The notes under the pieces: generated by a model
What the model was told of the DNA's origin: nothing
Databases searched by the model: none
What the model saw: only the letters and a program-made list of their open reading frames with translations
Made by a program: the position numbers and the translations under genes
In this document: positions 3 through 26,735 of the stretch, piece by piece
How the letters are laid out: every line of letters begins with the position of its first letter
Position numbering within the stretch: position 1 is the stretch's first letter
From: a virus
Taxonomy: Duplodnaviria; Caudoviricetes
DNA length: 31,006 bases
Virus record (IMG/VR): IMGVR_UViG_3300028008_000067
Span: 1 to 31,006 of that record
Strand: one strand, 5' to 3'

Positions 3-98
3 CTAATAACAAAATATAAGAAAGCTAACGAATATTTTGATAACTATAAGTATCAATCAATGTTAACAGGGATATCAAATGGATCTACTATTAAATAA
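3..98 (+). CDS. 3' end of a gene truncated by the window start (…LITKYKKANEYFDNYKYQSMLTGISNGSTIK*)
   Basis: Open frame from base 3 to TAA 96-98, overlapping the next start at 79 as is typical of this operon; not in ORF track. Confidence 0.55.
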   Translation, partial: LITKYKKANEYFDNYKYQSMLTGISNGSTIK

Positions 99-849
99 CC
101 ACCAAACAAGAGGACTTCATTCACTGAGGTTTTTATCAGCATTAGAAGACTACCCAGAAATGATGCAAAGTATTTCAAGTGTTCTTGATATTGAATCAGG
201 AATAGGATTAGATTCTGAATGGTGGGCAACAAGAATGGACGATGATGAAAAGGATCCAAAACCTTTAGAAATTGACGTAACAGCTTGTAGCCGAACTGAC
301 GAAATGAAACAAGAAGTTAAAGACATGGAAAGAGTAAACTATGTTAAAACAGGTAAGCCTTTTTGGGAGTCATTTAAAAGCAGTGAAAAGTTTGATGTAT
401 TATGGTGTCATAGTGTTTTACACAAATACAGTAATTTTTATGAAGTGCTAGTAAAAATGAACGAGCTACAGTCGAATGAAGGTATGCTATGTATTACTGT
501 TCCTAGAATTAGTAATATGTTTTATGGAGAACCTGATTATAGAGTTTATCCTGATTGCCATACTGATATTAATATTGTAAATCTTATTCATGGATTAGCA
601 TTAGCTGGATATGATTGTAAAGATGCTTATTTCATGCAAGAAAAAAATAGCAATCTAGTAAATGCTATTGTATATAAAACATCTGATGATACATATGGTA
701 TTAATGATGTTACACCTTATGATCTAATGGAAATGGATCGCTTACCTCGTTCAATGGTACAGCAACTTAATAAGTTTGGATTTATTTCTAATAAAAATTT
801 ACTTCTTAGTTGGATAGACGGTACTCTTGTAGACTACTCCACAGTCTAG
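79..849 (+). CDS. Class I SAM-dependent methyltransferase-like protein
   Basis: Motif-I-like VLDIESGIG, FDVLWCHSVLH and GMLCITVP strands typical of Methyltransf_11/23 folds. Confidence 0.7.
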   Translation: MDLLLNNHQTRGLHSLRFLSALEDYPEMMQSISSVLDIESGIGLDSEWWATRMDDDEKDPKPLEIDVTACSRTDEMKQEVKDMERVNYVKTGKPFWESFKSSEKFDVLWCHSVLHKYSNFYEVLVKMNELQSNEGMLCITVPRISNMFYGEPDYRVYPDCHTDINIVNLIHGLALAGYDCKDAYFMQEKNSNLVNAIVYKTSDDTYGINDVTPYDLMEMDRLPRSMVQQLNKFGFISNKNLLLSWIDGTLVDYSTV

Positions 850-1699
850 ACCAAGGTATACATTCACTAATTTCTTCAACAGTCCATTCAGTATGTGCTA
901 ACTCTACTAGCCATTGTTCTCTATTTGGTCTTAAATTATCTAAATCTTTAGGATGAACACTAACAGGGTAAGTTAGACTTTCAGGTCCAGTCCAAGCCGC
1001 CACTCCATTTATAGTAGCCTCCATAGCAGGGTTACTACTTTCACTAACAACTAGTTTAGCTGTTTCTAATGCTTTGTTAAAATCAAAGTTATCGTATGTG
1101 CCTTCAACATGATTAGCTGACATATACTTAACACCATATTTCTTTTTTAAGTTAATTTCTTCGTTATAGTGAATACTTCTTTGATGCCTAGGATGGTCTC
1201 TTATTAGTATTGGAATATCTGTATGGTTTCTAATTTCTAATATTCTATTTTCGTAGTATTGATCTATATGTGGCAAGTTACGCCATTGGTCGCTTTTTTG
1301 ATGTTGCCCACAAATAATAATATTATCTCCAAGTAAGTTCCAAGCCTTTAATTTTATTCCTAGCTTACTTGGTCGATCGACGTCTAAATTTGTTTTATTA
1401 CAAAAGTTAGCTTTAGCATTAATACCATTGATGCCAACTTTCCATGTAACGTTTCTGTTTAATCCACCTACTTCTAAAACTACAACAGGTTTACCTTGTT
1501 TATGAAATTCATTCCAAACAGCTCTATTAGGAGCCATTCTACCATTCCATAGTAATGACCAAATTACAGCAACGTCGGCATCCATGTCGTTTTCAACTAC
1601 TGAGTCGTTACACTTCCATTCGTTGACAGCTTTCATCATAGCTTCGAAAACTGGCTTACCTGCCTTGCTAGAATTTTGAGTAAAGAATGAAACTTTCAT
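806..1699 (-). CDS. KpsC/KpsS (Capsule_synth)-like GT-B glycosyltransferase
   Basis: GQ..SD motif (CGQHQKSD), IRDHPR, VVSESSNPAMEATINGV resembling the Capsule_synth 'HP' and 'NSsvg.EAll.G' motifs. Confidence 0.6.
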   Translation of the reverse strand: MKVSFFTQNSSKAGKPVFEAMMKAVNEWKCNDSVVENDMDADVAVIWSLLWNGRMAPNRAVWNEFHKQGKPVVVLEVGGLNRNVTWKVGINGINAKANFCNKTNLDVDRPSKLGIKLKAWNLLGDNIIICGQHQKSDQWRNLPHIDQYYENRILEIRNHTDIPILIRDHPRHQRSIHYNEEINLKKKYGVKYMSANHVEGTYDNFDFNKALETAKLVVSESSNPAMEATINGVAAWTGPESLTYPVSVHPKDLDNLRPNREQWLVELAHTEWTVEEISECIPWSRLWSSLQEYRLSN

Positions 1700-1704
1700 A
1701 AAAG

Positions 1705-1719
1705 TATTTACACTAAATA
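1705..1719. promoter_or_regulatory. Back-to-back T4-late-like TAAATA boxes (TATTTA-CAC-TAAATA) serving divergent genes
   Basis: TATTTA 1705-1710 (minus-strand TAAATA) and TAAATA 1714-1719 in a 49-bp divergent gap. Confidence 0.6.
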
Positions 1720-1748
1720 TGAGTAGTTAATTCGAGAAATGGAAATCA

Positions 1749-2624
1749 ATGTTATACGGTTATAGTACAAGTAAAAGACATACTCAAGGAGTGGTAGACT
1801 CTTTTACTAAAGGCTCAAACGGTGTATCAATTGATATAAGCGATTTAAAAAATGGACTTCCGGGCGATGCTAGTACAGTTACTAGTTTTGGTTTTCTAAG
1901 AGGTACAGCCGAAGTATTTAAACAAGCAGAAAGTAAAGGAATCAATTACTTACATATTGACCATGCTTACTTTCAAGGCGGCCATAAAACAGAACCAGAT
2001 CCTTGGTATCGTATAATCAAAAACGGAATGAACATAAAAGAAATAAACAAAAGATGGCCTTCTGACAGATTTAATTTTTACTTTAGTCAACAACTTAATA
2101 TACAACCATGGAAGGAAAAAGATGACGGGTATATATTAATTCTTCCTCCGACTCAGCCGACAGCTTGGTATACAAATTCTACAAATTGGTTAGTTGAAAC
2201 AGTAAAACTTATTAAGTCTAAGACTGATAGAGAAATTAAGATTAGACATAAACCACCTGTAATGGTTTGTGACGATAGAGGCTATCCTTTACATTCAGAT
2301 ATAGTAAAACAACATATTCAAGATATGGAACATCTTGTAAGTGGTAATACTTTACAACAAGATTTAAACGGTGCTAATTGTGTAGTAGCTTATAATAGTG
2401 GAGTAGTAGTAGATGCTATTGTTCAAGGTATTCCTGTAATTAGTCACAGTAATGCGGCTTCGTATCCTTTGAGTTTTAGCATTAATGATATAGATACAAG
2501 TGTAATGAAGCAAGAACCTGATAGACAAAATTGGCTTAATGCTTTGGCTTATCATCAGTTTAGATTATCTGAAATGAGAGATGGAACAGCTTGGAATTTA
2601 CTGAAAGAACATCATGGAATATAA
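1749..2624 (+). CDS. KpsC/KpsS (Capsule_synth)-like GT-B glycosyltransferase, paralog of 806-1699
   Basis: IKIRHKP, VVAYNSGVVVDAIVQGIPV, and C-terminal PDRQNWLNALAYHQF matching PNREQWLVELAHTEW of the neighbour. Confidence 0.6.
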   Translation: MLYGYSTSKRHTQGVVDSFTKGSNGVSIDISDLKNGLPGDASTVTSFGFLRGTAEVFKQAESKGINYLHIDHAYFQGGHKTEPDPWYRIIKNGMNIKEINKRWPSDRFNFYFSQQLNIQPWKEKDDGYILILPPTQPTAWYTNSTNWLVETVKLIKSKTDREIKIRHKPPVMVCDDRGYPLHSDIVKQHIQDMEHLVSGNTLQQDLNGANCVVAYNSGVVVDAIVQGIPVISHSNAASYPLSFSINDIDTSVMKQEPDRQNWLNALAYHQFRLSEMRDGTAWNLLKEHHGI

Positions 2625-2820
2625 CGTAGTATACGCTAGTTTTTACCGTCTTATTAAGCATATAATAGGCGTACACGCTGACTTAAGGTAAAGTACTATC
2701 AAAGTGCTATATAGAATATTTCCTGACGTTTTAAGAAGGTTTTAATTGGCACCACTTGTTTGATTGGCTGAAAAATTTTTCGATACATACATTAGTAGAC
2801 TATTATACCGGATAAAAATT

Positions 2821-3438
2821 ATGAAAATACATTGTGTAACAACTTTTAGTAATGATGGATACAAGCAATACGCCCACCGAATGTTAGATTCGTGGATTGA
2901 ACACTGGCCTAGCGATATTACCCTCCATGTATACCATGATATTCCTGCTCCTCAATGGCACAGGCAATTTCCTAGATATGTTAAAATGTGGGCTTTCGAT
3001 AACAAGGAACTAGAAAGCTTCAAAGTAAGAAATAAAAATAATCCAAGTGACAGTATTAAGTTTAGTCATAAAGTTTTTGCTTTTGGAGATTGTTGTGATA
3101 AGCATATTAATTTAAAAGAGCAAATTGTAATTTTTCTAGATGCCAATACTATTACACATAGTCCTATGACAGCACCTGAGTTAGCAAGTCTAGTAGAAGG
3201 CTATCTTGGTGCTTGTTCACTAGATCCTACAGAAACTGGATTTCATATGATTAACTTAGATCATGGAGATGCTAGAGAGTTTTTAAAATACTTTTTAGAT
3301 GAATACCGAAGAGATAAAATATGGGATTTACCTGCTCACACAGATAAAGATGCTTATGATAAATCAAGAGAAAGAATAGGCGCTCATTTGTTTAATAATT
3401 TAAAAGATAACGAAGTGTTAAAGGGGATTAGCAAGTGA
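2821..3438 (+). CDS. GT-A-like glycosyltransferase, degenerate paralog of the next gene
   Basis: MKIHCVTTF aligns with MNIKTVTTF of the next gene, so ATG 2821 is preferred over TTG 2764; shared KFSHKVF/RFCYKVY, FLDANT/CIDADS, ETGF/ECGY. Confidence 0.6.
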   Translation: MKIHCVTTFSNDGYKQYAHRMLDSWIEHWPSDITLHVYHDIPAPQWHRQFPRYVKMWAFDNKELESFKVRNKNNPSDSIKFSHKVFAFGDCCDKHINLKEQIVIFLDANTITHSPMTAPELASLVEGYLGACSLDPTETGFHMINLDHGDAREFLKYFLDEYRRDKIWDLPAHTDKDAYDKSRERIGAHLFNNLKDNEVLKGISK

Positions 3439-4172
3439 ACATAAAAACAGTAACAACTTTTAATAAACGTTTATATGATGAGTATGCTCATAGATTTATG
3501 TCAACTTATAATTGGCCTTTTGAACTAATTGTTTATAGTGAAGACGAAATACCTAATGTAGAAACATTTAATACATTTGATCTTATTCCAAAATGTAAAG
3601 AATTTGTTGACAGGAACATCAATAGAGAAGTACCTAGTTTAAATTTAGATACTTTTAAATATGATGCTGTAAGATTTTGTTATAAAGTTTATGTATATAC
3701 ACACGAAATATTAAAACAAATAGAAGCAGGCACAGACGGCTTAATATGTATAGATGCTGATAGTGTATTTTATAATCCTATAGATGTAGATTGGATGAAA
3801 CAAAATATACATCGTGATGGATATATGATGACATACTTAGGTAGACCACGACCAGATTATAGTGAGTGTGGTTATCTATATTTTAATTTAAAACACCCGC
3901 ACACCAAATACTTTGCTGAAGCGGTTCAAGAAATGTATAATTCTGATATGCTATACAATGAAAAGGAATGGCACGACAGTTGGATATGGGACGAAGTAAG
4001 GTTTAGGTTTGAAGAAAGAGGTACACAAAATTATAATATAAGTGATAACAAAAAAGGTCACGTTCAATGTAGAAGTGTATTAGGTCAAGTTTACGACCAT
4101 ACAAAAGGCCCAAGGAAAATAACAGGGCGTAGTTTAGAATTTACAGGTAAAGAAAGAAATAACAATGAATAA
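3435..4172 (+). CDS. GT-A-like glycosyltransferase (phage family)
   Basis: DxD motif (IDAD), YLGR..YSECG, WHDS and C-terminal DHTKGPRK. Confidence 0.65.
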   Translation: MNIKTVTTFNKRLYDEYAHRFMSTYNWPFELIVYSEDEIPNVETFNTFDLIPKCKEFVDRNINREVPSLNLDTFKYDAVRFCYKVYVYTHEILKQIEAGTDGLICIDADSVFYNPIDVDWMKQNIHRDGYMMTYLGRPRPDYSECGYLYFNLKHPHTKYFAEAVQEMYNSDMLYNEKEWHDSWIWDEVRFRFEERGTQNYNISDNKKGHVQCRSVLGQVYDHTKGPRKITGRSLEFTGKERNNNE

Positions 4173-4851
4173 CATATATGTAGGATGGGATAGTAGAGAA
4201 GACATAGCTTACCAAGTTTGTGAGCATAGCATTCTTAATAGATCTAAAACTACTGAAGTCATTCCGCTAAAACAAAAACATTTGAGAGATAGTGGAATAT
4301 ACACACGAGATATTGACAAACTAGGAAGTACAGAATTTACTTTTACAAGATTTTTAGTTCCGTTTTTAAATAATTACGAAGGCTGGGCTATATTCTGTGA
4401 CTGTGATATGGTATTTTTAAGTGATGCTAAAAACATATTTGACCAAGCTGATGACAAGTATGCTGTGATGTGTGTACAACATGATTATACCCCACCTGAA
4501 GGACATAAAATGGATGGGCAATTACAGTTACAATATCCTAGGAAAAACTGGAGTTCTATGGTATTGTTTAATTGTGGCCATCCTAGTAATAAAAAATTGA
4601 CAAAAGAGCTTATAAATGATCCTAGCATAACTGGAAAATACCTCCATAGGTTTAGTTGGCTAGAAGATTCAGAAATAGGTGAACTAAGTCACGAGTACAA
4701 CTGGTTAGTTGGGTGGTATAAAGAACCTAAAGATGGTTCACCTAAAGTGTTACATTATACAGAAGGTGGTCCTTGGTTTGATAATATGAGAGATTGTGAA
4801 TATAGTGATATATGGAAGAAAGAAGTTATCAACTTATATTCTAGTCAATAG
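4165..4851 (+). CDS. Glycosyltransferase, GT8/CDI-like
   Basis: YVGWDSRE, STEFTFTRFLVP, DCD (DxD), YPRKNWSS, LHYTEGGPW. Confidence 0.8.
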   Translation: MNNIYVGWDSREDIAYQVCEHSILNRSKTTEVIPLKQKHLRDSGIYTRDIDKLGSTEFTFTRFLVPFLNNYEGWAIFCDCDMVFLSDAKNIFDQADDKYAVMCVQHDYTPPEGHKMDGQLQLQYPRKNWSSMVLFNCGHPSNKKLTKELINDPSITGKYLHRFSWLEDSEIGELSHEYNWLVGWYKEPKDGSPKVLHYTEGGPWFDNMRDCEYSDIWKKEVINLYSSQ

Positions 4852-4859
4852 GATTAATA

Positions 4860-5657
4860 ATGTCTGATTCGAAAATAGTAATGTGTACAGGTGGCTTTGA
4901 TCCACTACATACTGGGCATATTGCTTATTTAAAGGCCGCTAAAGAATTAGGAGACATACTTATTGTAGGTATAAACTCTGATGAATGGTTGGAACGTAAA
5001 AAAGGCAAAGCATTTATGCCATGGAACGAACGTCTTGCTATTTTAAATAGTTTAGAAGTAGTCGATGAAGTATTTACGTTTATGGATGATGACAACACAG
5101 CTATAAATTTTATAAAACAAGTTAAAGCACATTATCCTATTACAGCATATAAGTTAATTTTTGCTAACGGTGGAGATAGAACAGCAGATAATATTCCAGA
5201 AATGATATTTGATGATGTAGAATTTGTGTTTGGTGTTGGTGGAGAAGATAAAAAGAATTCAAGTAGCTGGATATTAGAAGAATGGAAAGCACCAAAGGTA
5301 GAACGTAGTTGGGGTCATTACAGAAATTTATACAAAGGTAAAAATTTTATGGTAAAAGAATTAGTTATTAATCCACATAGTGCTTTATCAATGCAAAGAC
5401 ACGAGCATAGAAGTGAAACTTGGAACCTAGTTAGTGGCAATGCTGAAGTTTTAGTTAAGCAAGGTATAACAGATCCGTATGATGGACCATCAGTATGGGC
5501 ATTACACCCTAACAATCCTGTAGATATAATAAAAGGAGTCTGGCACAAAGGCAGAAATACTACAGATGAACCAGCACATATTATTGAAATATGGAAAGGC
5601 GAAACTGATAAATTAACAGAAGAAGACATAGAACGTTGGGATAAGGAAGAAGAATGA
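4860..5657 (+). CDS. HxGH cytidylyl/adenylyltransferase (TagD/RfaE-II-like) fused to a mannose-6-P isomerase-type cupin
   Basis: GGFDPLHTGH, NSDEWL..KKG, FANGGDR, KNSSS; C-terminal RSWG..VKEL..LSMQRHEHRSETW cupin. Confidence 0.85.
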   Translation: MSDSKIVMCTGGFDPLHTGHIAYLKAAKELGDILIVGINSDEWLERKKGKAFMPWNERLAILNSLEVVDEVFTFMDDDNTAINFIKQVKAHYPITAYKLIFANGGDRTADNIPEMIFDDVEFVFGVGGEDKKNSSSWILEEWKAPKVERSWGHYRNLYKGKNFMVKELVINPHSALSMQRHEHRSETWNLVSGNAEVLVKQGITDPYDGPSVWALHPNNPVDIIKGVWHKGRNTTDEPAHIIEIWKGETDKLTEEDIERWDKEEE

Positions 5658-6289
5658 TATTATACTGTGCGGCAGACTCAAAATATTTTGATCTTTACTT
5701 TCATTTGTGGGCCCACCAGGCTAACAAGTTTTATCCTGACATGAAAAAGTATGTTGCTATATATAGACCTACAATTGAACAGCAACATAGGTGTCAAGCA
5801 TTTGGTGTAGAATGGAAAGACGTTACAAAATCAATGCCAGCAGATCCTATTAGAAAACATTTTTATCTTTTACGTTGGTTAAACTTGCCTTATGAAAGAG
5901 GAGAACCAATATTAGAAACACAGATAAATTGTTTAGCAGTTAAAACACAACACTTTAGTGAACATACTGTAGAGCAGTTAAGGATTGGTCGAATGAAACG
6001 TGGTTTTATAGGTGGTGTATCGGCGGCAGTTTTCACACCAGAGGGTGCTAAACGTGTTGTTGAACAAGCAAAAGTAATGATTGCTGATCCTCCCGAAAGC
6101 GACCACGAGATGAATATGTGGCAAGAGGAAAATTTAACTTACCAAAACGTATTAGCAGAAGAACAATTTAAAAAAATTAACACTTATAAAAAACTAAAAG
6201 AACAAACTTGCTGGATTACTGCCGGGACATCTCAGAATCACACTCCAGAACAAAAGTTGAAAGTATTGAGGTATTACATTGATGAGTAA
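5654..6289 (+). CDS. Hypothetical protein, possibly a divergent GT-A-like transferase
   Basis: ORF coupled to both neighbours; start ILYCAADSKYF resembles GT-A beta1; no clear DxD. Confidence 0.5.
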   Translation: MILYCAADSKYFDLYFHLWAHQANKFYPDMKKYVAIYRPTIEQQHRCQAFGVEWKDVTKSMPADPIRKHFYLLRWLNLPYERGEPILETQINCLAVKTQHFSEHTVEQLRIGRMKRGFIGGVSAAVFTPEGAKRVVEQAKVMIADPPESDHEMNMWQEENLTYQNVLAEEQFKKINTYKKLKEQTCWITAGTSQNHTPEQKLKVLRYYIDE

Positions 6290-7010
6290 ATTAACAGTTA
6301 TTATGCCGGCCGCCGGCAAAGGCACACGTTTGAACCTGCCTTATCCAAAAGAAATATTAAGACTTGACAAAGAACAAGCATTAATAGATCACAGTTTTGA
6401 CTTTTTTAGAGATTATGGTCGTAAAGATGTTGAATTTGTTATTGTTGTTAATGAAGAAAAAACAGAAATAGTAGAATATCTAGCAAGATATAAAGATAGG
6501 TATAATATAAGTTTCACTTATCAAAATCCAAACGAATTTGAATACACAGGTGCTATAAAAAGTGCTAGACATTTGTTTGGTGAGCATAATGTTATACTGT
6601 TACCTGATACTATTATGAAATTACCACCTAATGTAGATTTAGTAGAAGCATTAGAAAACAGTTTAACTGAAACTGGCTTTACATTTTTTTACAAAGAAGA
6701 AACAAATCCTGATATGTTAAAAACTAAAGGTGCTTTGAGTATTGATCTCGAAGGCAAAGTAGTATTGTATGAAGATAAGCCAGAACAAGACTTTGAGAGG
6801 TTTAATGCTTTTTGGTGTAGCTTTGCTTTTAGACGTAGAGCATTTGATGATTGTATTTCCTTTATGGAAAAGAGTACATTAAATCAAAGAGTAAACATTG
6901 ATGAAATTAAAAGCACACCTATATTTCAAAGTAAAGGAATTAAAGTTGACGATTATACTGATTTAGGTACTTGGGAAGAAATAAGGCGATTATTAGCCAA
7001 TCATGAGTAA
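6282..7010 (+). CDS. Sugar-1-phosphate nucleotidyltransferase (RmlA/NTP_transferase family)
   Basis: PAAGKGTRL..PYPKE signature, LLPDT, EDKP, DLGTW. Confidence 0.85.
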   Translation: MSKLTVIMPAAGKGTRLNLPYPKEILRLDKEQALIDHSFDFFRDYGRKDVEFVIVVNEEKTEIVEYLARYKDRYNISFTYQNPNEFEYTGAIKSARHLFGEHNVILLPDTIMKLPPNVDLVEALENSLTETGFTFFYKEETNPDMLKTKGALSIDLEGKVVLYEDKPEQDFERFNAFWCSFAFRRRAFDDCISFMEKSTLNQRVNIDEIKSTPIFQSKGIKVDDYTDLGTWEEIRRLLANHE

Positions 7011-7584
7011 GAAAATTGTAACAGATTGTGATGGTGTATTGTTAGACTGGTGTTATGCTTATGACATTTGGATGAGCGAACAAGGATATCAAAGACAACC
7101 AGACACAGATCACAGTTTTAATCAAACAGTACGTTATGGTATTAGTGAAGAAGATATGATTGATACTGTAAAAAGTTTTAATGAATCAGCATCAGTAGGT
7201 TATTTGCCTGCCTTTAAAGATAGTGTAGAATATGTTACACGACTTGCTGAAGAAGGTTGGCGGTTTGATGTTGTTAGCAGTTTACATATTGACAAGTATG
7301 CTCAAACTTTAAGAAAAAAGAATTTAACACACTTGTTTGGAGATGTGTTTGACAAGATTGATGCCAGTTTAAGTTTTACAGGAGGCAAAGGAGACTACCT
7401 TGCTGAACATTATGGTGATACAGGATACTGGTGGATTGAAGATAGCGTAAGTCATGCTGTTAGTGGACAAGACGCTGGCCTTAAGAGCGTGGTAATGGAT
7501 TGGCCTTATAACCAACGTTGGGAAGGTCTAAGAGTAAAAAATTGGAAAGAGTTATACGGAGTAATAAATGACACCACACATTGA
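7003..7584 (+). CDS. HAD-superfamily phosphatase / 5'-nucleotidase-like (T4 gp30.2-like)
   Basis: Motif I DCDGVLLDW, motif II VSS, WIEDS motif IV, C-terminal RVKNWKE. Confidence 0.75.
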   Translation: MSKKIVTDCDGVLLDWCYAYDIWMSEQGYQRQPDTDHSFNQTVRYGISEEDMIDTVKSFNESASVGYLPAFKDSVEYVTRLAEEGWRFDVVSSLHIDKYAQTLRKKNLTHLFGDVFDKIDASLSFTGGKGDYLAEHYGDTGYWWIEDSVSHAVSGQDAGLKSVVMDWPYNQRWEGLRVKNWKELYGVINDTTH

Positions 7585-8278
7585 AGCACAAAAAGGAGAT
7601 TATGCTCCTACAGTTTTAATGCCAGGCGATCCTCTTAGGGCTAAATGGATTGCTGAAACATTTTTAACAGATTATAAGCAAGTAAACGGTGTAAGAAACT
7701 GTTTAGGATACACTGGATATTATAACGATTCAAGAGTTAGTGTCCAAGCTAGTGGCATGGGACAACCTAGTTTAGGAATATATGCCCATGAACTTTATAA
7801 CTTTTATGATGTAAAAAATATTATAAGAGTTGGTAGTTGTGGAGGATTAGCAAAAAACGTTAAGTTAGGAGACATTGTTGTTGCTATGACAGCCTCCACT
7901 GATAGTGATATGTCTAGTAAAATATTATCTAGTTTATATACTGATGTAAAATTTTGCCCTTGTGCCGATTATGAATTATTAAAAGATTTTGTTAGCAACA
8001 TACCCAAGACGGCAAAGTATCATGTAGGTAGTATTGTTAGCACAGATTATTTTTACCAACCAGAAGAAGATTGGTGGAAACCTTTAGCAGATGTAGGTAT
8101 ACTTGCTGTTGAAATGGAAGCTCACTTACTATACACTTTAGCTATGAGATTTGGCAAAAAAGCATTAGCAGTTAGTACGGTAAGCGACCATCTAGATGGC
8201 GGTGACTCTATGTCTGCTAAAGAAAGGCAAAGTAGTTTTAACGATATGGTTAAAACAGTTTTAGAAACAGTATGTTAG
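7568..8278 (+). CDS. deoD: Purine nucleoside phosphorylase, DeoD type
   Basis: MTPHI, MPGDPLRAKWIAE, VRN, SGMG.PS.GIY..EL, IIRVGSCGG, VEMEA, TVSDH: phosphate- and ribose-binding residues intact. Confidence 0.95.
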   Translation: MTPHIEAQKGDYAPTVLMPGDPLRAKWIAETFLTDYKQVNGVRNCLGYTGYYNDSRVSVQASGMGQPSLGIYAHELYNFYDVKNIIRVGSCGGLAKNVKLGDIVVAMTASTDSDMSSKILSSLYTDVKFCPCADYELLKDFVSNIPKTAKYHVGSIVSTDYFYQPEEDWWKPLADVGILAVEMEAHLLYTLAMRFGKKALAVSTVSDHLDGGDSMSAKERQSSFNDMVKTVLETVC

Positions 8279-8853
8279 CCTTTGGTTGTAGCATAGTAGC
8301 TGGAGAAGAGCTAGAAGGTAAACAAACAATACCTAAACTGTTTGCTGAACATATTGGCGAACCATTAATCAATCACGGACTTATGGGTGCTGGTAATGAT
8401 GAAATTTTACTTGAAGCATTTGATAAAGTAGAACCAGGACATACTGTACTAGTAGGTATCACTGATGTAGCAAGAGTCTTTTGGCCACACGTAGCAGTCG
8501 AAGATAAGATGCAGACGTTTAGTATAAATGAAAAAAGTAAACTTCATAAGTTAAAAGAAAGTCTTGACCTTTGGTTTAAATGGTGCTATAATGAAGGTAC
8601 ATTAGAACAATATTATATTAAACGTTTTAAGCAGTTTGAAAAATATTGTCAAGTGTTAGGCAACAAAATATATTTCTTTTCAGGCATTACTCCTCCTACT
8701 AGCCAATTTCAAAAACATCATGGCACTAACTGGCATACATCTTCAGCATTGATAGATTACGCCGACCAGTATGGTAGAGAGCCCAAAGGCCATCCAAATG
8801 AAATATGCCATATTAAATATTTTGAAAGTATGAAAGAAGAGTTTAAATTATAA
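8272..8853 (+). CDS. SGNH/GDSL-hydrolase-like protein
   Basis: AFGCS block I variant, NHGLMGAGN block II, GHP...H block V. Confidence 0.5.
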   Translation: MLAFGCSIVAGEELEGKQTIPKLFAEHIGEPLINHGLMGAGNDEILLEAFDKVEPGHTVLVGITDVARVFWPHVAVEDKMQTFSINEKSKLHKLKESLDLWFKWCYNEGTLEQYYIKRFKQFEKYCQVLGNKIYFFSGITPPTSQFQKHHGTNWHTSSALIDYADQYGREPKGHPNEICHIKYFESMKEEFKL

Positions 8854-9536
8854 TGAAAGCAAAATTAGTATCGTACTCAGTACCAACAGAAGAATTTAAA
8901 AATCTTGGATTAGATAATGTACAAGACTTGGTAGCCTATTGTGCCAAAGTAAGCAATCCATCAAATCAAATTAACAAAGAAACAAGTGAACGTTTGATTA
9001 AGTATTTAATACAACATCAACATTGGTCACCACTCGAAATGGTTAGTGCTTGTTTAGAAATAGAAACAACAAGAGATATTGCTCACCAAATAGTAAGACA
9101 TAGAAGTTTTAGTTTCCAAGAGTTTAGTCAACGCTATGCTGATCCTACTACAATGGAAGATTGGTATGAATTAAGAGAAGCACGTTTACAAGATACTAAA
9201 AATAGACAAAACAGTATTGAAACTGAAGATGTACACTTAACTATGGAATGGTTTAAGAAACAATCAGCAGTACAACAGGCATCAGAAGATGCTTATAATT
9301 GGGCGATTACAAACGGTATTGCTAAAGAACAAGCCCGTGTAGTATTACCAGAAGGAATGACTAAAACAAGATTATATATGAATGGTACATTACGAAGCTG
9401 GGTACATTATATTGAATTAAGAGGAGCCAACGGAACACAAAAAGAGCATATGGAAATAGCTCACGCTTGTGCTGATGTTATTAGTAAAATATTTCCTCTT
9501 ATGAATAATTTAGGAGATGAGAATGAAAGCAGGTAA
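8853..9536 (+). CDS. thyX: FAD-dependent thymidylate synthase
   Basis: HWSPLEM, RHRSFSFQEFSQRY ThyX motif, AKEQAR.VLP, TQKEH. Confidence 0.97.
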   Translation: MKAKLVSYSVPTEEFKNLGLDNVQDLVAYCAKVSNPSNQINKETSERLIKYLIQHQHWSPLEMVSACLEIETTRDIAHQIVRHRSFSFQEFSQRYADPTTMEDWYELREARLQDTKNRQNSIETEDVHLTMEWFKKQSAVQQASEDAYNWAITNGIAKEQARVVLPEGMTKTRLYMNGTLRSWVHYIELRGANGTQKEHMEIAHACADVISKIFPLMNNLGDENESR

Positions 9537-9876
9537 GATATGGGGACAAACAGAACTCATTCATGCTAATGGAGTTCTTGAGTTTCATAGAATAGAATTT
9601 AAAGCAGGTTATAAATGTAGTGAACACGAGCATGAATTTAAATGGAACGGATTCTTTGTAGAATCAGGTAAGATGATAGTTCGTGTATGGCAAAGTGAAG
9701 ACCAACAAGGATTAGTAGACGAAACTATTCTTAAAGCAGGAGATTTTACACAGGTTAAGCCAGGAATGGTACATCAATTTGAAGGTGTAGAAGATGGTGT
9801 AGCTTTTGAACTATATTGGGCTGAATTTAATCACAGTGATATTAAAAGACGTACGGTGGGCTCTAAATTAAAATGA
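9523..9876 (+). CDS. Cupin-domain protein (sugar isomerase-like)
   Basis: KIWG, SEHEHEFKWNGFFVESG, PGMVHQF; AGGAG 9512-9516 favours ATG 9523. Confidence 0.75.
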   Translation: MKAGKIWGQTELIHANGVLEFHRIEFKAGYKCSEHEHEFKWNGFFVESGKMIVRVWQSEDQQGLVDETILKAGDFTQVKPGMVHQFEGVEDGVAFELYWAEFNHSDIKRRTVGSKLK

Positions 9877-10577
9877 TAAATGTAGCTTGTGTTTGGATAC
9901 CACCAAAATACAGTATGTCTTATGTAGATAAACTTTACAATAGTGTAAAAAGAAACCTAACACAGAATTTTAATTTTTATTGTTTAACAACACACCCACA
10001 AGACGTTAATAATCCTAATGTAATACCTATTAGTATACCTATTGATGAACAATTAGAAAAAGGTAAAAACAAATGGTGGTATAAGGCTCATTTATTCAAA
10101 GAACATAATTGGGAAGGACAAATCTTATATTTAGATTTAGACACAGTCGTTGTTAACAATTTAGATAAGTTTTTTAACCATAGACCTACCGAATTCAATA
10201 TATGCCAAGATTTTAATCGACACGGAATGCCTAAATACTATGTAAGTAATAGTAGTGTAATGAAGTTTCAAGCAAACAATTATACTAAATTTTATCAAGA
10301 CTTTATTGAAAATAAGACTAATATTGTTAACAAATTTAAGGGAGATCAAGATTGGTTAACTAGAATCTTAGAAGATAATAAATCATGGTGGCCTAAAGAA
10401 TGGGCTATGAGTTATAAATGGGAAGTCCTCAACGGAGGATTAAAACATATGGGCACAAAAGAATATCTTTCTAATGAAACAATAGTAAATCCTGAAACAA
10501 GTATTTTAGTATTTCATGGCAACCCAAATCCTGGTGATATTGCCGACGATCCAATTATAAAAGAACACTGGTTATGA
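9873..10577 (+). CDS. GT-A glycosyltransferase (GT8-like)
   Basis: KY...YV.KL, WWYK, YLDLDTVV (DxD), NSSVM, GDQDW, ILVFHGNPNP. Confidence 0.8.
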   Translation: MINVACVWIPPKYSMSYVDKLYNSVKRNLTQNFNFYCLTTHPQDVNNPNVIPISIPIDEQLEKGKNKWWYKAHLFKEHNWEGQILYLDLDTVVVNNLDKFFNHRPTEFNICQDFNRHGMPKYYVSNSSVMKFQANNYTKFYQDFIENKTNIVNKFKGDQDWLTRILEDNKSWWPKEWAMSYKWEVLNGGLKHMGTKEYLSNETIVNPETSILVFHGNPNPGDIADDPIIKEHWL

Positions 10578-11407
10578 TAACAAAGAAAAAATGTAGACAC
10601 GGTAATTTTACTTTTTTTGATAATGATATTATCATTGGAAAAAGTATGGCAGTATATGGCGAGTACTGTGAATGGGAGATTATGTGTTTAGATCATATTA
10701 TTGAATCCGATTGGCATATAGCTGATATAGGTGCTAACATAGGAACACATACTATACCATTTACTAGATTTGCTCACAAAGGTCATGTACATTGTTTTGA
10801 GCCTAACGAAACAACTAGAAATTTATTAGAAAGAAACTTATTAGATAACAAAGTTACTAATGCTACTGTTTTCCCTTATGCTTTAAGTAGAAGTGCTGGA
10901 GAAAAATATTTGAGTAATTATAATCCACAAAAGCCAGGAAATTACGGTGAATCAAGTTTAAATTCTAGTAGCGAATATATGTCTTTAGTTCCTACTATGA
11001 GATTAGATCAAATACAGTTTGAAAGATTAGATTTAATTAAGTGTGATGTAGAAGGCGAAGAACTTGAAGTATTTAAAGGAGCCAAACATACACTAGCAAA
11101 ACACTTGCCTTCTTGTTTTGTAGAATGTAATACAGAAACTCATTTAGCACCTCTATGGGATAGATTTACAAAACTAGGATATCATAAATTTTATTGGTGC
11201 CCTGTTAGAAATTATAACCCAGACAATTACAATAATTACGAAAAGAATATATTTGGTACTAGTGGTGTTATTAACATACTAATTCTATCGCCTAAATTAA
11301 AAGTAAAATTTGATTACTTAGAACCAGTTACAGACAGAGAAGATACTTATAAGAAAATGTATGATAGAGTATCAACAGATCAAATCAACAAAAATAAATT
11401 AATTTAA
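10574..11407 (+). CDS. FkbM-family methyltransferase
   Basis: YGEY, DIGANIGTHT, FEP, LDLIKCDVEGEE. Confidence 0.9.
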   Translation: MITKKKCRHGNFTFFDNDIIIGKSMAVYGEYCEWEIMCLDHIIESDWHIADIGANIGTHTIPFTRFAHKGHVHCFEPNETTRNLLERNLLDNKVTNATVFPYALSRSAGEKYLSNYNPQKPGNYGESSLNSSSEYMSLVPTMRLDQIQFERLDLIKCDVEGEELEVFKGAKHTLAKHLPSCFVECNTETHLAPLWDRFTKLGYHKFYWCPVRNYNPDNYNNYEKNIFGTSGVINILILSPKLKVKFDYLEPVTDREDTYKKMYDRVSTDQINKNKLI

Positions 11408-14411: not shown

Positions 14412-15173
14412 TTACGTCCTCTGTTTAAATTTACCCCACCATTGACGTCTAAAACTATTAGCAGTAATGTCTGCCCAATATTGTTCGTCTGGTGTTCCAC
14501 TAGCAATCATATGATACCTTGTTTCGTTACTCATATTAACAACAGTATGATAGTGATTATTACCAAACAACCACATACATCCATCTGTTACAGGAATATT
14601 ACCCCATTGACCCATATGGAAGTAACACTTGTCGGGATTTGTTAAACTAATATTAACAACACCTAAATCAAATGTAGGATCCTCTCCATCTGGTACATCA
14701 TTATGCCAGCGAATAACTCCGCCAGGACGTAGTATCATAAATCTAATTCTGTTATATCTTTTATAGTGGAAATCATTTTTAAAGAAGTTTGTTGTAACAG
14801 GACATTCATCTGCTATCTCTGTCCACTTTAATGCTCCGGCGGCTCTTGCTTCATTGTAATTAGCATAACCATATTCTTCGGGTGGTAACGTGGAATCAGA
14901 ACTTAAACCATAAAGTGCTACAGCAGACCAACCTTGGTTACTACCGTCATTGTATGTTGGTATTAATCCTTTTTCATCTAGTACTTTTGCTTCTTCGGCC
15001 ATTTCTTCATAAGGCCATGTAGGAAAGTCTAACATAAGCCAAGGTAAGCCAAATCCAAAATGTTCTTTCTTTGGGTGACTGTTATCTCTTATCCAATCGT
15101 ATGTATCTTGGTTATTTAAGGGGTCAATGCCAAAGTCTCCTGGCATGGGAATTTGCTTTCCGTTTATATCCAT
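14412..15173 (-). CDS. Aspartyl/asparaginyl beta-hydroxylase-like 2OG-Fe(II) oxygenase
   Basis: RIRFMIL.PGG.I.WHND (HxD), HTVVN..NETRYHMI; true start ATG 15173 (MDING) with AAAGGA RBS and GATAAATA box upstream. Confidence 0.8.
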   Translation of the reverse strand: MDINGKQIPMPGDFGIDPLNNQDTYDWIRDNSHPKKEHFGFGLPWLMLDFPTWPYEEMAEEAKVLDEKGLIPTYNDGSNQGWSAVALYGLSSDSTLPPEEYGYANYNEARAAGALKWTEIADECPVTTNFFKNDFHYKRYNRIRFMILRPGGVIRWHNDVPDGEDPTFDLGVVNISLTNPDKCYFHMGQWGNIPVTDGCMWLFGNNHYHTVVNMSNETRYHMIASGTPDEQYWADITANSFRRQWWGKFKQRT

Positions 15174-15192
15174 GTGGTGATTTCCTTTACAA

Positions 15193-15200
15193 TATTTATC
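15193..15200 (-). promoter_or_regulatory. T4-late-like promoter GATAAATA for the minus-strand four-gene operon
   Basis: TATTTATC on + strand, 20 nt upstream of ATG 15173. Confidence 0.55.
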
Positions 15201-15231
15201 TGGGTATATAATGGGTGAGTGTATTATTGGC

Positions 15232-15260
15232 TTGACACAACTTACAGTTTGTGTTACAAT
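15232..15260 (+). promoter_or_regulatory. Sigma70-type promoter for mtnN
   Basis: TTGACA-17 nt-TACAAT with TGn extended -10. Confidence 0.75.
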
Positions 15261-15288
15261 AACAAAGTTATTTATAAGGAGATACAAA

Positions 15289-15873
15289 TTGACCACATTA
15301 TTAGCTGTAGCATTACAGGATGAATACCCAAACACTAATATACCTACTGGGTTTGATATAGTATATACTGGCGTTGGAAAAATTAATGCCACATACGAGC
15401 TAACTAAAAAACTTATGCTGAGTGATGACGAAATGCCAAAACAAGTAATTAACTTTGGAACAGCAGGATCAGTAAATGGAAAGCATACAGGACTAGTAGA
15501 AGTAGACATTATTTTACAACGTGATATGATAGCTGAGCCACTAGAACCACGTGGCATTACACCATATCAAGAAGCCAGCGGAGTAGATCATGCTATTGTA
15601 TTACATTCAAATACTAACATAACTTTAGGCACAGGAGATAACTTTGTAAGTGAAGATGACCCGTGGTTTGAGTATGCTAATGTAGATCTAGTAGATATGG
15701 AAGCCTATGCTTTAGCCGTTGTATGTGCTAAAATGGGTGTAAAATTTCGTTGTTTTAAATATATTTCGGATAGTGCTAACAAAGAAGCCAAAAACGATTG
15801 GGAATCATCACTCAAAATAGCCAAAAATGACTTCCAAAAATTGCTTGAGGAGGAAAATAATTTAAAAACCTAA
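15289..15873 (+). CDS. mtnN: 5'-methylthioadenosine/S-adenosylhomocysteine nucleosidase (MtnN/Pfs family)
   Basis: VALQDE, TGVGKINA, VINFGTAG, GTGDNFV, VDMEAY, KYISD; TTG start 15289 after AGGAG 15277-15281. Confidence 0.8.
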   Translation: MTTLLAVALQDEYPNTNIPTGFDIVYTGVGKINATYELTKKLMLSDDEMPKQVINFGTAGSVNGKHTGLVEVDIILQRDMIAEPLEPRGITPYQEASGVDHAIVLHSNTNITLGTGDNFVSEDDPWFEYANVDLVDMEAYALAVVCAKMGVKFRCFKYISDSANKEAKNDWESSLKIAKNDFQKLLEEENNLKT

Positions 15874-22540: not shown

Positions 22541-22918
22541 ATGACATATCTGGTAGACGATAAATGTGTTTTATGTAAACACAAGGATTGTGTAGAAGTT
22601 TGCCCTGTGGATTGTTTCTACGAAGGCGAAAACACTTTAGTAATTAATCCTGATGAATGTATCGACTGTGGAGTATGTGAACCTGAATGCCCAGTAGAGG
22701 CAATTTGGGCAGATACTGATTCTAGTAAAGACCCATCAGAATTAGCCTATTGGTTACAATATAATAATGCTGAATTCATTGAAAAGAATAACTGGCCAGT
22801 TATTACAGACAATGATGATCCAATGCCAGAACATGAAAAGTACCATCCAGATAATTTCCCAGAAGGTAAAAAACATCTCTTTAGTGAAAAGGCAATGCCC
22901 CCAGGCGGCAGTGATTAA
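22541..22918 (+). CDS. fdxA: Dicluster ferredoxin, FdxA type
   Basis: [44 protein letters not shown]. Confidence 0.92.
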
Positions 22919-25539: not shown

Positions 25540-26013
25540 TTGAAAATTTTTAAAGACAAAACAGACGACTTTTTTAGATGGGTTAAAGGTACAGAACTAG
25601 TTGAACTAGACGACATTGATGTATCTGAAGATCCAGTAAGGCCTGAGCTTACTTTAGGTTTTAGAATTCTTCATGGAAGAAAGATCTTTGGTTTAAAATA
25701 TCAAGATGAAATTGAGGCTATTATTTGTGTAGCATTTTGTCCTGAAATACCATATACAGTTAGAGAAATGGACTATATGAGTAGAACAGAAGATGGCACT
25801 ATTGCTATTGCTTATACTGTATGGTCTCGTAAAAAAGGTGCTGGTAAAGAGATTGTAAAAAAATTAGGAGAATGGTGTAATAAAAATCATTGTTCTAGAC
25901 TAGTAACGTTATCACCATTAACAACTATGGCAACACACTTTCATATTAAGAATGGGGCCAAACAAGTTCATATTAACGACATAACTCAAAACTTTGAATA
26001 TAAGTTAAATTAA
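25540..26013 (+). CDS. GNAT-fold-like hypothetical protein
   Basis: AYTVWSRKKGAGKEIV acetyl-CoA-loop-like motif, VTLSP..A..FH.KNGA; TTG start with GAGGA RBS. Confidence 0.5.
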   Translation: MKIFKDKTDDFFRWVKGTELVELDDIDVSEDPVRPELTLGFRILHGRKIFGLKYQDEIEAIICVAFCPEIPYTVREMDYMSRTEDGTIAIAYTVWSRKKGAGKEIVKKLGEWCNKNHCSRLVTLSPLTTMATHFHIKNGAKQVHINDITQNFEYKLN

Positions 26014-26735
26014 ATTATTTGTTTATTTTTAGCAGTATTCTTAACGTAGTTTGCCATTCCGTGGTCTCTTAAACCATCAAACAATTCAAAGTTTTTAATG
26101 GCCGCCCAATGTCCTCTAGCCCAGTCTTTAAGTAATTGCCATTTAGATAAACCGTTTCTTAACTTACCATAATGATTAATGTACATCATATCCCCATGGT
26201 GTCTGAAACCCATAATCCATAAAGGTACTTTAGTAACTAGGTCGTTGTTATTACGCCATCTGTAGTGTTTAACATTAACACTTTCTACCCATTTTTTATT
26301 ACCAACTCTAGGTGATCCAAACGTGTATAATTCTTTACATTTATTTTGTAATCTACTAGCGGCGATTGTTGCCATTGCTCCACCTAAACTGTGACCACAA
26401 ATATATAATGGTTTTGTTGTGCTTAATTTGTCTTTTATGTCTTTCCAGACCTTATTAACTTCATCATAAAAGCCATCATGTACTCTACCTTTAGTTCTAG
26501 ACTTGCTCTTCCATGCTTTTAGGTCAGCTTTGATATCATTAAACTCTTTTGGCTCTGTACCCCTAAATGCTAACACCTGCTCATCTTTGTTTGTTAATAC
26601 TACTACTTGAGCACCGTCTTTGCTTATAAATTGTACTTTAGTATATCCGACCTTTTTTAGTTTAGCTGTTAATTTAGCGTCGAATTCTTCATACACTAAT
26701 CCTGCCAAATTAGCGAAATGACTACTTCTATTCAT
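26010..26735 (-). CDS. Class 3 lipase (alpha/beta hydrolase)
   Basis: LAFRGT, VHDGF, GHSLGG nucleophile elbow, TFGSPRVGN, NDLVTKVP, DH; AGGAG RBS. Confidence 0.9.
   Translation of the reverse strand: MNRSSHFANLAGLVYEEFDAKLTAKLKKVGYTKVQFISKDGAQVVVLTNKDEQVLAFRGTEPKEFNDIKADLKAWKSKSRTKGRVHDGFYDEVNKVWKDIKDKLSTTKPLYICGHSLGGAMATIAASRLQNKCKELYTFGSPRVGNKKWVESVNVKHYRWRNNNDLVTKVPLWIMGFRHHGDMMYINHYGKLRNGLSKWQLLKDWARGHWAAIKNFELFDGLRDHGMANYVKNTAKNKQII

Follow-up and report, generated by a model that had tools for sequence, protein, structure and literature searches.

What use could a phage make of a purine nucleoside phosphorylase that is encoded in one string of genes with a sugar-1-phosphate nucleotidyltransferase? 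The question is raised by the IMG/VR record IMGVR_UViG_3300028008_000067 (an uncultured marine phage; Duplodnaviria; Caudoviricetes), of which a stretch of 31,006 nucleotides, hereafter the window, was analyzed. Four consecutive genes on the + strand are at issue: a candidate glycosyltransferase (GT) gene at 5654-6289 (hereafter 5654), the nucleotidyltransferase gene at 6282-7010, a HAD phosphatase gene at 7003-7584 and the phosphorylase gene, deoD, at 7568-8278. According to the original prediction, made from the DNA sequence, these genes form a pathway in which the phosphatase turns nucleotides into nucleosides, DeoD releases (deoxy)ribose-1-phosphate, and the other two enzymes activate and transfer this pentose. 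Comparison with viral and bacterial relatives indicates that three of the four genes form a real and conserved block that appears to be a new variation on the LipP/LipM/LipN-like strategy of nucleoside antibiotic biosynthesis. The block is carried by dozens of distantly related aquatic phages, with the three genes kept in order.

Conservation of the gene block

All four reading frames are open, lie on the same strand and overlap successively by 8, 8 and 17 nt, as had been claimed; an in-frame TTG at 6279 is located ahead of the nucleotidyltransferase start at 6282. Overlap as such was considered as a sign of a unit and rejected because the + strand run 2821-11407 has 12 junctions, 11 of which overlap, so that this feature is island-wide. 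The unit is instead defined by its conservation in other phages.

The gene neighborhoods were surveyed in five alignment-based scans of IMG/VR, anchored on DeoD (best 80 of 103 relatives), the nucleotidyltransferase (best 80 of 152), the 5654 protein (72 loci) and two further GT families, c7 (76 loci) and c19 (78 loci from the best 80 of 109). Loci with too short a flank were dropped as uninformative, and clusters were formed at 90% identity. With DeoD as the anchor, the nucleotidyltransferase lies no more than 2.7 kb upstream in 73 of the 74 informative loci (43 of 44 clusters) and the HAD gene is upstream in 77 of 78, in a scan that favors the block, its patterns having been derived from block-associated DeoDs. 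With the nucleotidyltransferase as the anchor, 70 of 77 loci (22 of 25 clusters) have HAD downstream and 59 of 72 (20 of 25 clusters) have DeoD. Altogether, 75 distinct full trios were collected, with the pairwise identity dropping to 51, 40 and 47% for the three proteins; these trios occur in T4-like, RecA-encoding and lipopolysaccharide (LPS)-like cluster contexts (lineage labels assigned by eye), and the distance patterns of the three genes are similar (Spearman 0.71-0.74). The conserved unit, then, consists of the nucleotidyltransferase, HAD and DeoD, with an exchangeable GT.

The block is flanked by glycan genes, including GT11, GT6, sulfotransferases and short-chain dehydrogenase/reductase (SDR) epimerases. 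DeoA, DeoB and DeoC gave no hit, either in the window or across 273 overlapping viral loci that carry the nucleotidyltransferase, so that there is no catabolic outlet for ribose-1-phosphate nearby. A ThyA-like gene, RmlD, an aminotransferase and TauD are likewise missing from the window and from these 273 loci, the flanks of which cover only 4-8 kb. SDR epimerase-like genes are present in 46 of the 273 loci and RmlC in one, so that later epimerization is possible in some lineages; the window contains neither. The absence of RmlB, RmlC and RmlD from the window, noted in the original prediction, holds in domain and profile scans, and a Pfam scan of the window detected no sugar kinase or phosphoribosyltransferase.

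Two variants of the block were encountered on the way. In one viral locus (L015:2922-4031), HAD and DeoD are separated by a radical SAM/SPASM gene; a radical SAM domain is also fused, as judged by eye, to a nucleotidyltransferase of the same subfamily in P0315.

A separate nucleotidyltransferase subfamily

The nucleotidyltransferase (242 amino acids) had been assigned to the RmlA family, and this assignment stands with respect to the fold, which is that of RmlA and GalU (TM ∼0.7, Z 19-20, rmsd ∼3 and 14-21% identity over 216-222 aligned residues), but not with respect to the subfamily. The catalytic residues R16, K23, D109, K166 and D227 are retained and shared with RmlA and GalU. The match to PF00483 is weak (E 5.8e-7), and the protein misses all 14 NCBIfam cut-offs that it touches, including that of every hexose enzyme (for TIGR01208, the score is 19.7 against a cut-off of 320.25, and for TIGR01099, 15.6 against 326.8). 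Alignment with the single sequence of Escherichia coli RmlA gives an hhalign E-value of 0.0014, and the only match of the profile among the PDB sequences is the N-terminal part of IspD.

The sugar pocket is altered: in the alignment, N112, Y146, E162 and T174-G175 of RmlA, which we take to form the hexose pocket, correspond to T110, K149, D165 and W178-C179, respectively. The acid at the E162 position presumably binds the 2- and 3-hydroxyls. W178 is kept in 231 of 231 subfamily sequences. The identification of the protein as RmlA or GalU was therefore rejected, the scores being far under the family cut-offs and the hexose pocket changed. By sequence, the protein belongs to a separate subfamily that is common to phages and nucleoside-antibiotic clusters.

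Among deposited phages (50,697 records), tblastn yielded no match either to this nucleotidyltransferase or to 5654, and a metagenome scan with P0264 gave no match. A scan of GTDB returned 2 contigs out of 71 pattern matches, a count that does not represent the bacterial range because the patterns are phage-derived. On a high-GC contig of an Acidobacteria metagenome-assembled genome (MAG) (L107:7001-7729; G002:C174:30770-31486), a nucleotidyltransferase 70% identical to that of the window, with a third-position GC content (GC3) of 0.97, is located directly 3' of a multi-module polyketide synthase, with no adjoining HAD or DeoD, and groups with the phage sequences in their branch of the tree; a phage-to-bacterium transfer into a natural-product cluster is possible. 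A contig in a Rickettsiales MAG (L106/L128; G001:C1) contains the whole block and a GT of family c19 among phage-like genes and is probably a mis-binned phage contig.

Relatives in nucleoside-antibiotic clusters

A search with the nucleotidyltransferase profile over 1.84 billion representatives produced 485 hits at E 0.001, one of which led to six plasmid records. In two of these, from Streptomyces clavuligerus (pSCL3) and Streptomyces sp. (L110:6652-16708 and L108:6652-16708), the genes are arranged in the order class III aminotransferase, nucleotidyltransferase, 413-amino-acid GT, TauD dioxygenase, serine hydroxymethyltransferase (SHMT)-like enzyme, pyridoxal phosphate (PLP) enzyme, nonribosomal peptide synthetase (NRPS) and HAD fusion. 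This liposidomycin/muraymycin-type core set is largely annotated as hypothetical. The best PDB match of the SHMT-like protein is 7k34, which we take to be a threonine transaldolase, and that of the PLP enzyme is 1-aminocyclopropane-1-carboxylate (ACC) synthase; we assume that the latter enzyme resembles Mur24/LipJ. The order from the aminotransferase to the SHMT-like gene is found in L108, L110 and L120, and the covered part of it in L119 and L121-L124; that is, six metagenome loci (L119-L124) repeat the Streptomyces order as far as they are covered, and L120 adds a downstream PNP_UDP_1 gene.

In the available part of PMC4902027, the LipO/M/N/L/K gene set is described as the NDP-aminoribose route, such that, in the A-90289/muraymycin core, LipP releases aminoribose-1-phosphate, from which LipM forms the NDP-aminoribose used by LipN for transfer of the sugar; the roles of Cpz15 and Cpz17 are treated in the available part of PMC9814697. 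The actinobacterial clusters hold a gene set of the LipO/M/N/L/K type. The phage nucleotidyltransferase is 28-30% identical to the enzymes of the Streptomyces clusters (E 1e-31 to 1e-34) and 36% identical to a Bacillus enzyme, and the phage and actinobacterial profiles align along the whole length (237 columns) at E 4.7e-41. It is from gene content only that we infer a putative orthology of the phage enzyme to LipM.

The relatives of the nucleotidyltransferase are found in other settings as well. Two further Streptomyces hits (L111 and L113) lie beside an NRPS gene and a glycosyltransferase-like ORF, without the LipO/M/N/L/K-type set, and look truncated. Plasmids of Bacillus cereus and B. thuringiensis (L109:435-12395 and L114) carry a cluster of the nucleotidyltransferase, a 414-amino-acid GT, a Cof-type HAD, a phosphotransferase, a methyltransferase and two ABC transporters; this GT is homologous to that of the Streptomyces clusters (32-35% identity), and the cluster includes neither a dioxygenase nor a transaldolase.

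The phage and actinobacterial enzymes differ at position 149, which is Lys in 119 of 120 phage sequences and Asp in 81 of 81 actinobacterial ones. LipM reportedly requires the 5-amine. The Asp would suit the ammonium group of aminoribose and the Lys, a neutral or anionic sugar; the presence of Lys in place of Asp fits the loss of the amine, and an unmodified pentose is predicted as the substrate of the phage enzyme.

DeoD and the HAD phosphatase

DeoD (236 amino acids) is intact, as originally stated, scoring above the curated cut-offs of TIGR00107 (270.9 against 232.25) and NF004489 (306.4 against 230) and matching DeoD structures in the PDB at E 1e-67. It is 47% identical to E. coli DeoD and shares with it 17 of the 20 checked active site positions, including H4, G20, R24, R43, R87, S90, E179, M180, E181, S203, D204 and R217; A156, F167 and I206 differ. 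These positions were chosen as those that we take to form the phosphate, ribose and base pockets. From the family chemistry and the intact active site, it follows that the protein would carry out purine nucleoside phosphorolysis, yielding alpha-(deoxy)ribose-1-phosphate. The remark that DeoD is uncommon in phages is borne out by the deposited records, among which 28 of the 50,697 match, with at most 52% identity, and many of these 28 look bacterial.

The HAD protein (193 amino acids) matches phrog_420 (E 9.3e-28), presumably a T4 gp30.2-like family. Its score against NT5C, 18.9 bits, is under the cut-off of 24.8, and a PDB sequence search found no solved relative (best E 0.57). The DxD of motif I, D8-C-D10, is conserved across the HADs of the block. 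In a tree, a single branch with a support of 99 divides 76 block-associated HADs from 25 further members of the family, and two loci (L056 and L060) hold both types, the block one and the general one. Thus, the HAD is a paralogue dedicated to the block, and it is predicted to act as a 5'-nucleotidase on nucleoside monophosphates (NMPs).

Proposed pathway and competing explanations

These findings suggest a route from a purine NMP via the nucleoside, ribose-1-phosphate and NDP-ribofuranose to a glycan; we give this route somewhat better than an even chance. The HAD would take the 5'-phosphate off NMPs; DeoD, by its family chemistry, would split the purine nucleoside into the base and alpha-D-ribose-1-phosphate; and the nucleotidyltransferase, judging from its subfamily and context, would join ribose-1-phosphate with a nucleoside triphosphate (NTP) to give NDP-ribofuranose. 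The NTP is probably UTP or another pyrimidine nucleotide because Q81 aligns with the glutamine of RmlA, GalU and GlmU. A GT, in the window probably the 5654 protein and in other lineages a member of the 5654 family, the c7 family or others, would then use this donor. The receiving molecule would be a phage-built glycan, most likely on virion proteins. The series from HAD via DeoD and the nucleotidyltransferase to an NDP-pentose, as originally proposed, is thus backed by the LipP/LipM/LipN precedent and by the neighborhood of the genes, in that the co-occurrence of DeoD with the nucleotidyltransferase, on which the original prediction had staked its refutation, holds in 73 of 74 informative viral loci.

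Several observations weigh against this reading, in addition to the bias of the DeoD scan. Of 72 informative loci with the nucleotidyltransferase, 13 (5 of 25 clusters) have no DeoD, and 7 of 77 have no HAD either; in none of the five DeoD-less contigs that were searched whole, which are 13-23% complete, was DeoD found elsewhere. A sister of the window DeoD (L131:4001-6301) has DHFR and ThyA as neighbors on a contig of 109 kb that lacks the nucleotidyltransferase, and in the T4-like lineage, the block comes a few genes after those for ribonucleotide reductase (names assigned by eye). With regard to the antibiotic clusters, none of 91 relatives bears the names LipM, Mur18 or Cpz16, and a quick tree supports the phage branch (96) and that of the antibiotic clusters (98) without making them sisters, the two being joined at an open fork; ManC, on a long branch inside the subfamily in this tree, was treated as an artefact. 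The phage GTs show no homology to the LipN-like GT, which is found in no phage locus. Finally, the DeoD family also cleaves deoxynucleosides, which leaves 2-deoxyribose as a possible product.

Some of these points could be taken to mean that HAD and DeoD are genes for the nucleotide pool or purine salvage, and that the nucleotidyltransferase independently serves the glycan island, the linkage being historical rather than chemical. Under this explanation, the solitary DeoD in L131, the proximity to ribonucleotide reductase, the location of ThyX two genes 3' of the block in the window and the DeoD-less clusters would be expected, and the correlated distance patterns would reflect shared history only. 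However, DeoD adjoins the nucleotidyltransferase in 43 of 44 clusters while the surroundings differ, the HAD is a distinct paralogue that is retained alongside a general one, DeoB and DeoC were not found nearby, and the nucleotidyltransferase, being under every hexose-enzyme cut-off, groups with enzymes of aminoribose-type clusters. A mere salvage role is accordingly considered unlikely, and it is kept alive by the DeoD-less nucleotidyltransferase loci and L131.

Another explanation retains the block but changes the sugar or the order of steps, so that NDP-2-deoxyribose would be made from degraded host DNA, or the HAD would come in at a later stage and, like AfhF and the PRP domains, act on a sugar or glycan that carries a phosphate, and K149 would bind a 5-phosphate. 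The closest Pfam family of the HAD, albeit below the cut-off, is the deoxy-nucleotidase NT5C, DeoD is generally known to accept both types of nucleosides, and six loci (L004, L039, L046, L047, L049 and L050; L048 shows the same pattern) have the nucleotidyltransferase and HAD but lack DeoD. Moreover, HAD phosphatases acting on sugar phosphates are part of the RB69-type UDP-arabinofuranose (UDP-Araf) route and of ribosylation based on phosphoribosyl pyrophosphate (PRPP), as described in the available parts of PMC13326640 and PMC11127046, respectively. Against this stand the lack of a sugar kinase and a phosphoribosyltransferase in the window, the direct origin of ribose-1-phosphate from DeoD, which leaves no 5-phosphate to remove, and the acid retained at D165. 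Such a deviation from the pathway seems quite unlikely.

The 5654 protein and other partner glycosyltransferases

The 5654 protein (211 amino acids) has no match in Pfam, PHROG or NCBIfam and none in a PDB sequence search. Its structure model (pLDDT 95.2) has a GT-A fold, so that the protein is predicted to be a GT-A-fold glycosyltransferase, in agreement with the GT-like character originally ascribed to it. The best Foldseek match of the model is BoGT6a, titled a metal-independent glycosyltransferase (E 1.1e-6, TM 0.61), and the top VIA rows are tied among glycogenin, GT8-like and GT24-like structures (Z 14.8, rmsd 3.7, 204 aligned residues); BoGT6a and the GT8-like enzymes share the fold with 5654 at no more than 12% identity. 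The nearest language-model neighbors, at 0.95-0.96, carry PF03407/PF01501. Where a DXD motif is expected (a position located by eye), 5654 has no DXD but E88-T-Q90-I-N92, with Q90 and N92 each found in 118 of 120 sequences of the family. We assume that BoGT6a has an NXN motif; QxN instead of DXD is compatible with a metal-independent enzyme.

Membership of 5654 in the block as a fixed component, in contrast, did not hold up. When 5654 is the anchor, 53 of 63 informative loci (24 of 26 clusters) have the nucleotidyltransferase no farther than 1.5 kb downstream; when the nucleotidyltransferase is the anchor, the 5654 family is present in 42 of 79 loci and only 8 of 26 clusters. The family is tied to the nucleotidyltransferase but is optional for the block, so that 5654 is best described as a candidate pentofuranosyltransferase. 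In one lineage, the 5654 homologue sits between the tail-sheath and terminase genes, with the nucleotidyltransferase located ∼9 kb away on the same contig in two of the three contigs searched; this location is the best hint to an acceptor on the virion.

The c7 family, which is not represented in the window, has no Pfam match and looks GT-B-like by eye only, shows a similar relationship: of 71 loci with c7, 60 (30 of 41 clusters) also have the nucleotidyltransferase, and of 66 with the nucleotidyltransferase, 42 (11 of 23 clusters) have c7. The c19 family was also tried as a dedicated partner of the block and rejected, since no more than 15 of its 67 informative loci (11 of 45 clusters) have the nucleotidyltransferase nearby.

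With a retaining enzyme of the GT6/GT8-like kind, the ribofuranose would be alpha-linked. One can go further and propose that the 5654 family comprises metal-independent, Leloir-type retaining ribofuranosyltransferases that place alpha-ribofuranose on virion glycans, forming a third ribosylation route beside those dependent on PRPP and undP-ribofuranose (undP-Ribf), with the Asp-to-Lys replacement as the retuning of the nucleotidyltransferase; this extension is tentative and, as a whole, rather doubtful.

Relation to known pentose-transfer systems

The closest analogy is provided by the LipP/LipM/LipN systems of A-90289, caprazamycin and muraymycin, in which, according to the available part of PMC4902027, a nucleotide is likewise converted by a phosphorylase to a pentose-1-phosphate and then to an NDP-pentofuranose for transfer by a GT. 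The phage nucleotidyltransferase is homologous over its full length to enzymes of clusters with that gene set. Nevertheless, the phage loci lack the dioxygenase, the aminotransferase and the LipN-like GT, having HAD and a purine phosphorylase instead, the residue at position 149 is Lys rather than Asp, and the pathway would end in a glycan instead of an antibiotic. By analogy, the phage enzyme would work like LipM, but its partners and residue 149 set it apart from the LipM/Mur18 type.

The parallel with RB69-like phages drawn in the original prediction survives as an analogy but not as homology. In RB69, DLP3 and HY126, a HAD phosphatase and an NDP-sugar pyrophosphorylase also lead to an NDP-pentofuranose, UDP-Araf (AfhE, AfhF and arabinose-5-phosphate isomerase; available part of PMC13326640). 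That route, as described there, starts at ribulose-5-phosphate, employs an isomerase and a kinase, modifies DNA and has no phosphorylase, a word that does not occur in the main text of PMC13326640. Unlike the kinase-fused enzyme of that route, the window nucleotidyltransferase is a single 242-amino-acid domain, and the window, part of a record that is ∼9% complete, contains no RB69-type ThyA-like dCMP hydroxylase, arabinose-5-phosphate isomerase or kinase-fused transferase. The phage block, then, appears to be an analogue of the RB69-type route rather than a homologue.

The same comparison bears on whether the NDP-pentose could serve DNA hypermodification that blocks restriction enzymes. As a precedent, RB69 and DLP3 arabinosylate 5-hydroxycytosine by means of a HAD phosphatase, an NDP-sugar pyrophosphorylase and GTs (available part of PMC13326640), and the block is close to nucleotide genes in some lineages. 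Yet no ThyA-like gene was found in the window or around the block in the 273 loci, the window carries ThyX, the nucleotidyltransferase and 5654 have no counterparts in the deposited phage records, and the flanking genes are of the glycan type, with one 5654 homologue among virion genes. DNA as the target thus appears highly improbable, and a glycan remains the preferred acceptor.

Ribofuranose is also placed in bacterial glycans by the PRPP-dependent gPRT-PRP and the undP-Ribf/GT136 routes, which include a HAD phosphatase; the donors there are PRPP or a lipid phosphate, and alpha-ribofuranose (alpha-Ribf) is stated to require a retaining GT or a different donor (available part of PMC11127046). 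The phage block, if interpreted correctly, would add a plain NDP-ribose donor and a GT6/GT8-like enzyme to this repertoire; among the donors found in the literature, only the aminoribose used for nucleoside antibiotics is of the NDP-ribose type. A literature search of listings and abstract beginnings brought up no account of a phage block that combines DeoD with a nucleotidyltransferase. The present analysis adds the GT-A fold of 5654 and its linkage, the separate branch of the block HADs, the Lys/Asp exchange and, for one lineage, the location of the 5654 homologue among virion genes. If the proposed pathway is true, it points to new families of ribofuranosyltransferases, offers a way to approach the large glycan islands that marine phages carry for reasons so far unexplained and suggests a simple enzymatic source of NDP-pentofuranose for glycoengineering.

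Genomic surroundings in the window

The record is a linear virus contig with an estimated completeness of 9%, and therefore the genome is inferred to be ∼340 kb in size. The stretch or a part of it was detected in 20 runs, 18 of which are labelled marine or seawater; 7 of the 20 are possible sources of the record. Contigs from one metatranscriptome span 5124-6242 and parts of 6878-7547, and a second one gives short pieces (4 of the 24 listed runs); contigs by themselves cannot show transcription.

The block is embedded in a glycan-modification island (79-11407, no strand assigned), which is context outside the conserved block and encodes a GT8-like protein, a GT (phrog_1962), a cytidylyltransferase-cupin protein, an FkbM methyltransferase, a cupin and ThyX; in relatives, the island genes are shuffled around the block. 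Directly 5' of 5654, at 4860-5657, a cytidylyltransferase-like domain is fused to a cupin of the mannose-6-phosphate isomerase type, a second nucleotide-activating enzyme in the window that is present in 20 other loci. A second gene of the phosphorylase superfamily, at 15274-15873, is closest to MTA/SAH nucleosidases, although under the cut-offs, and may serve the methyltransferases of the island. The window also encompasses phage-borne genes for a 4Fe-4S ferredoxin (22541-22918), a class 3 lipase (26010-26735) and an Asp/Asn beta-hydroxylase-like protein (14412-15254).

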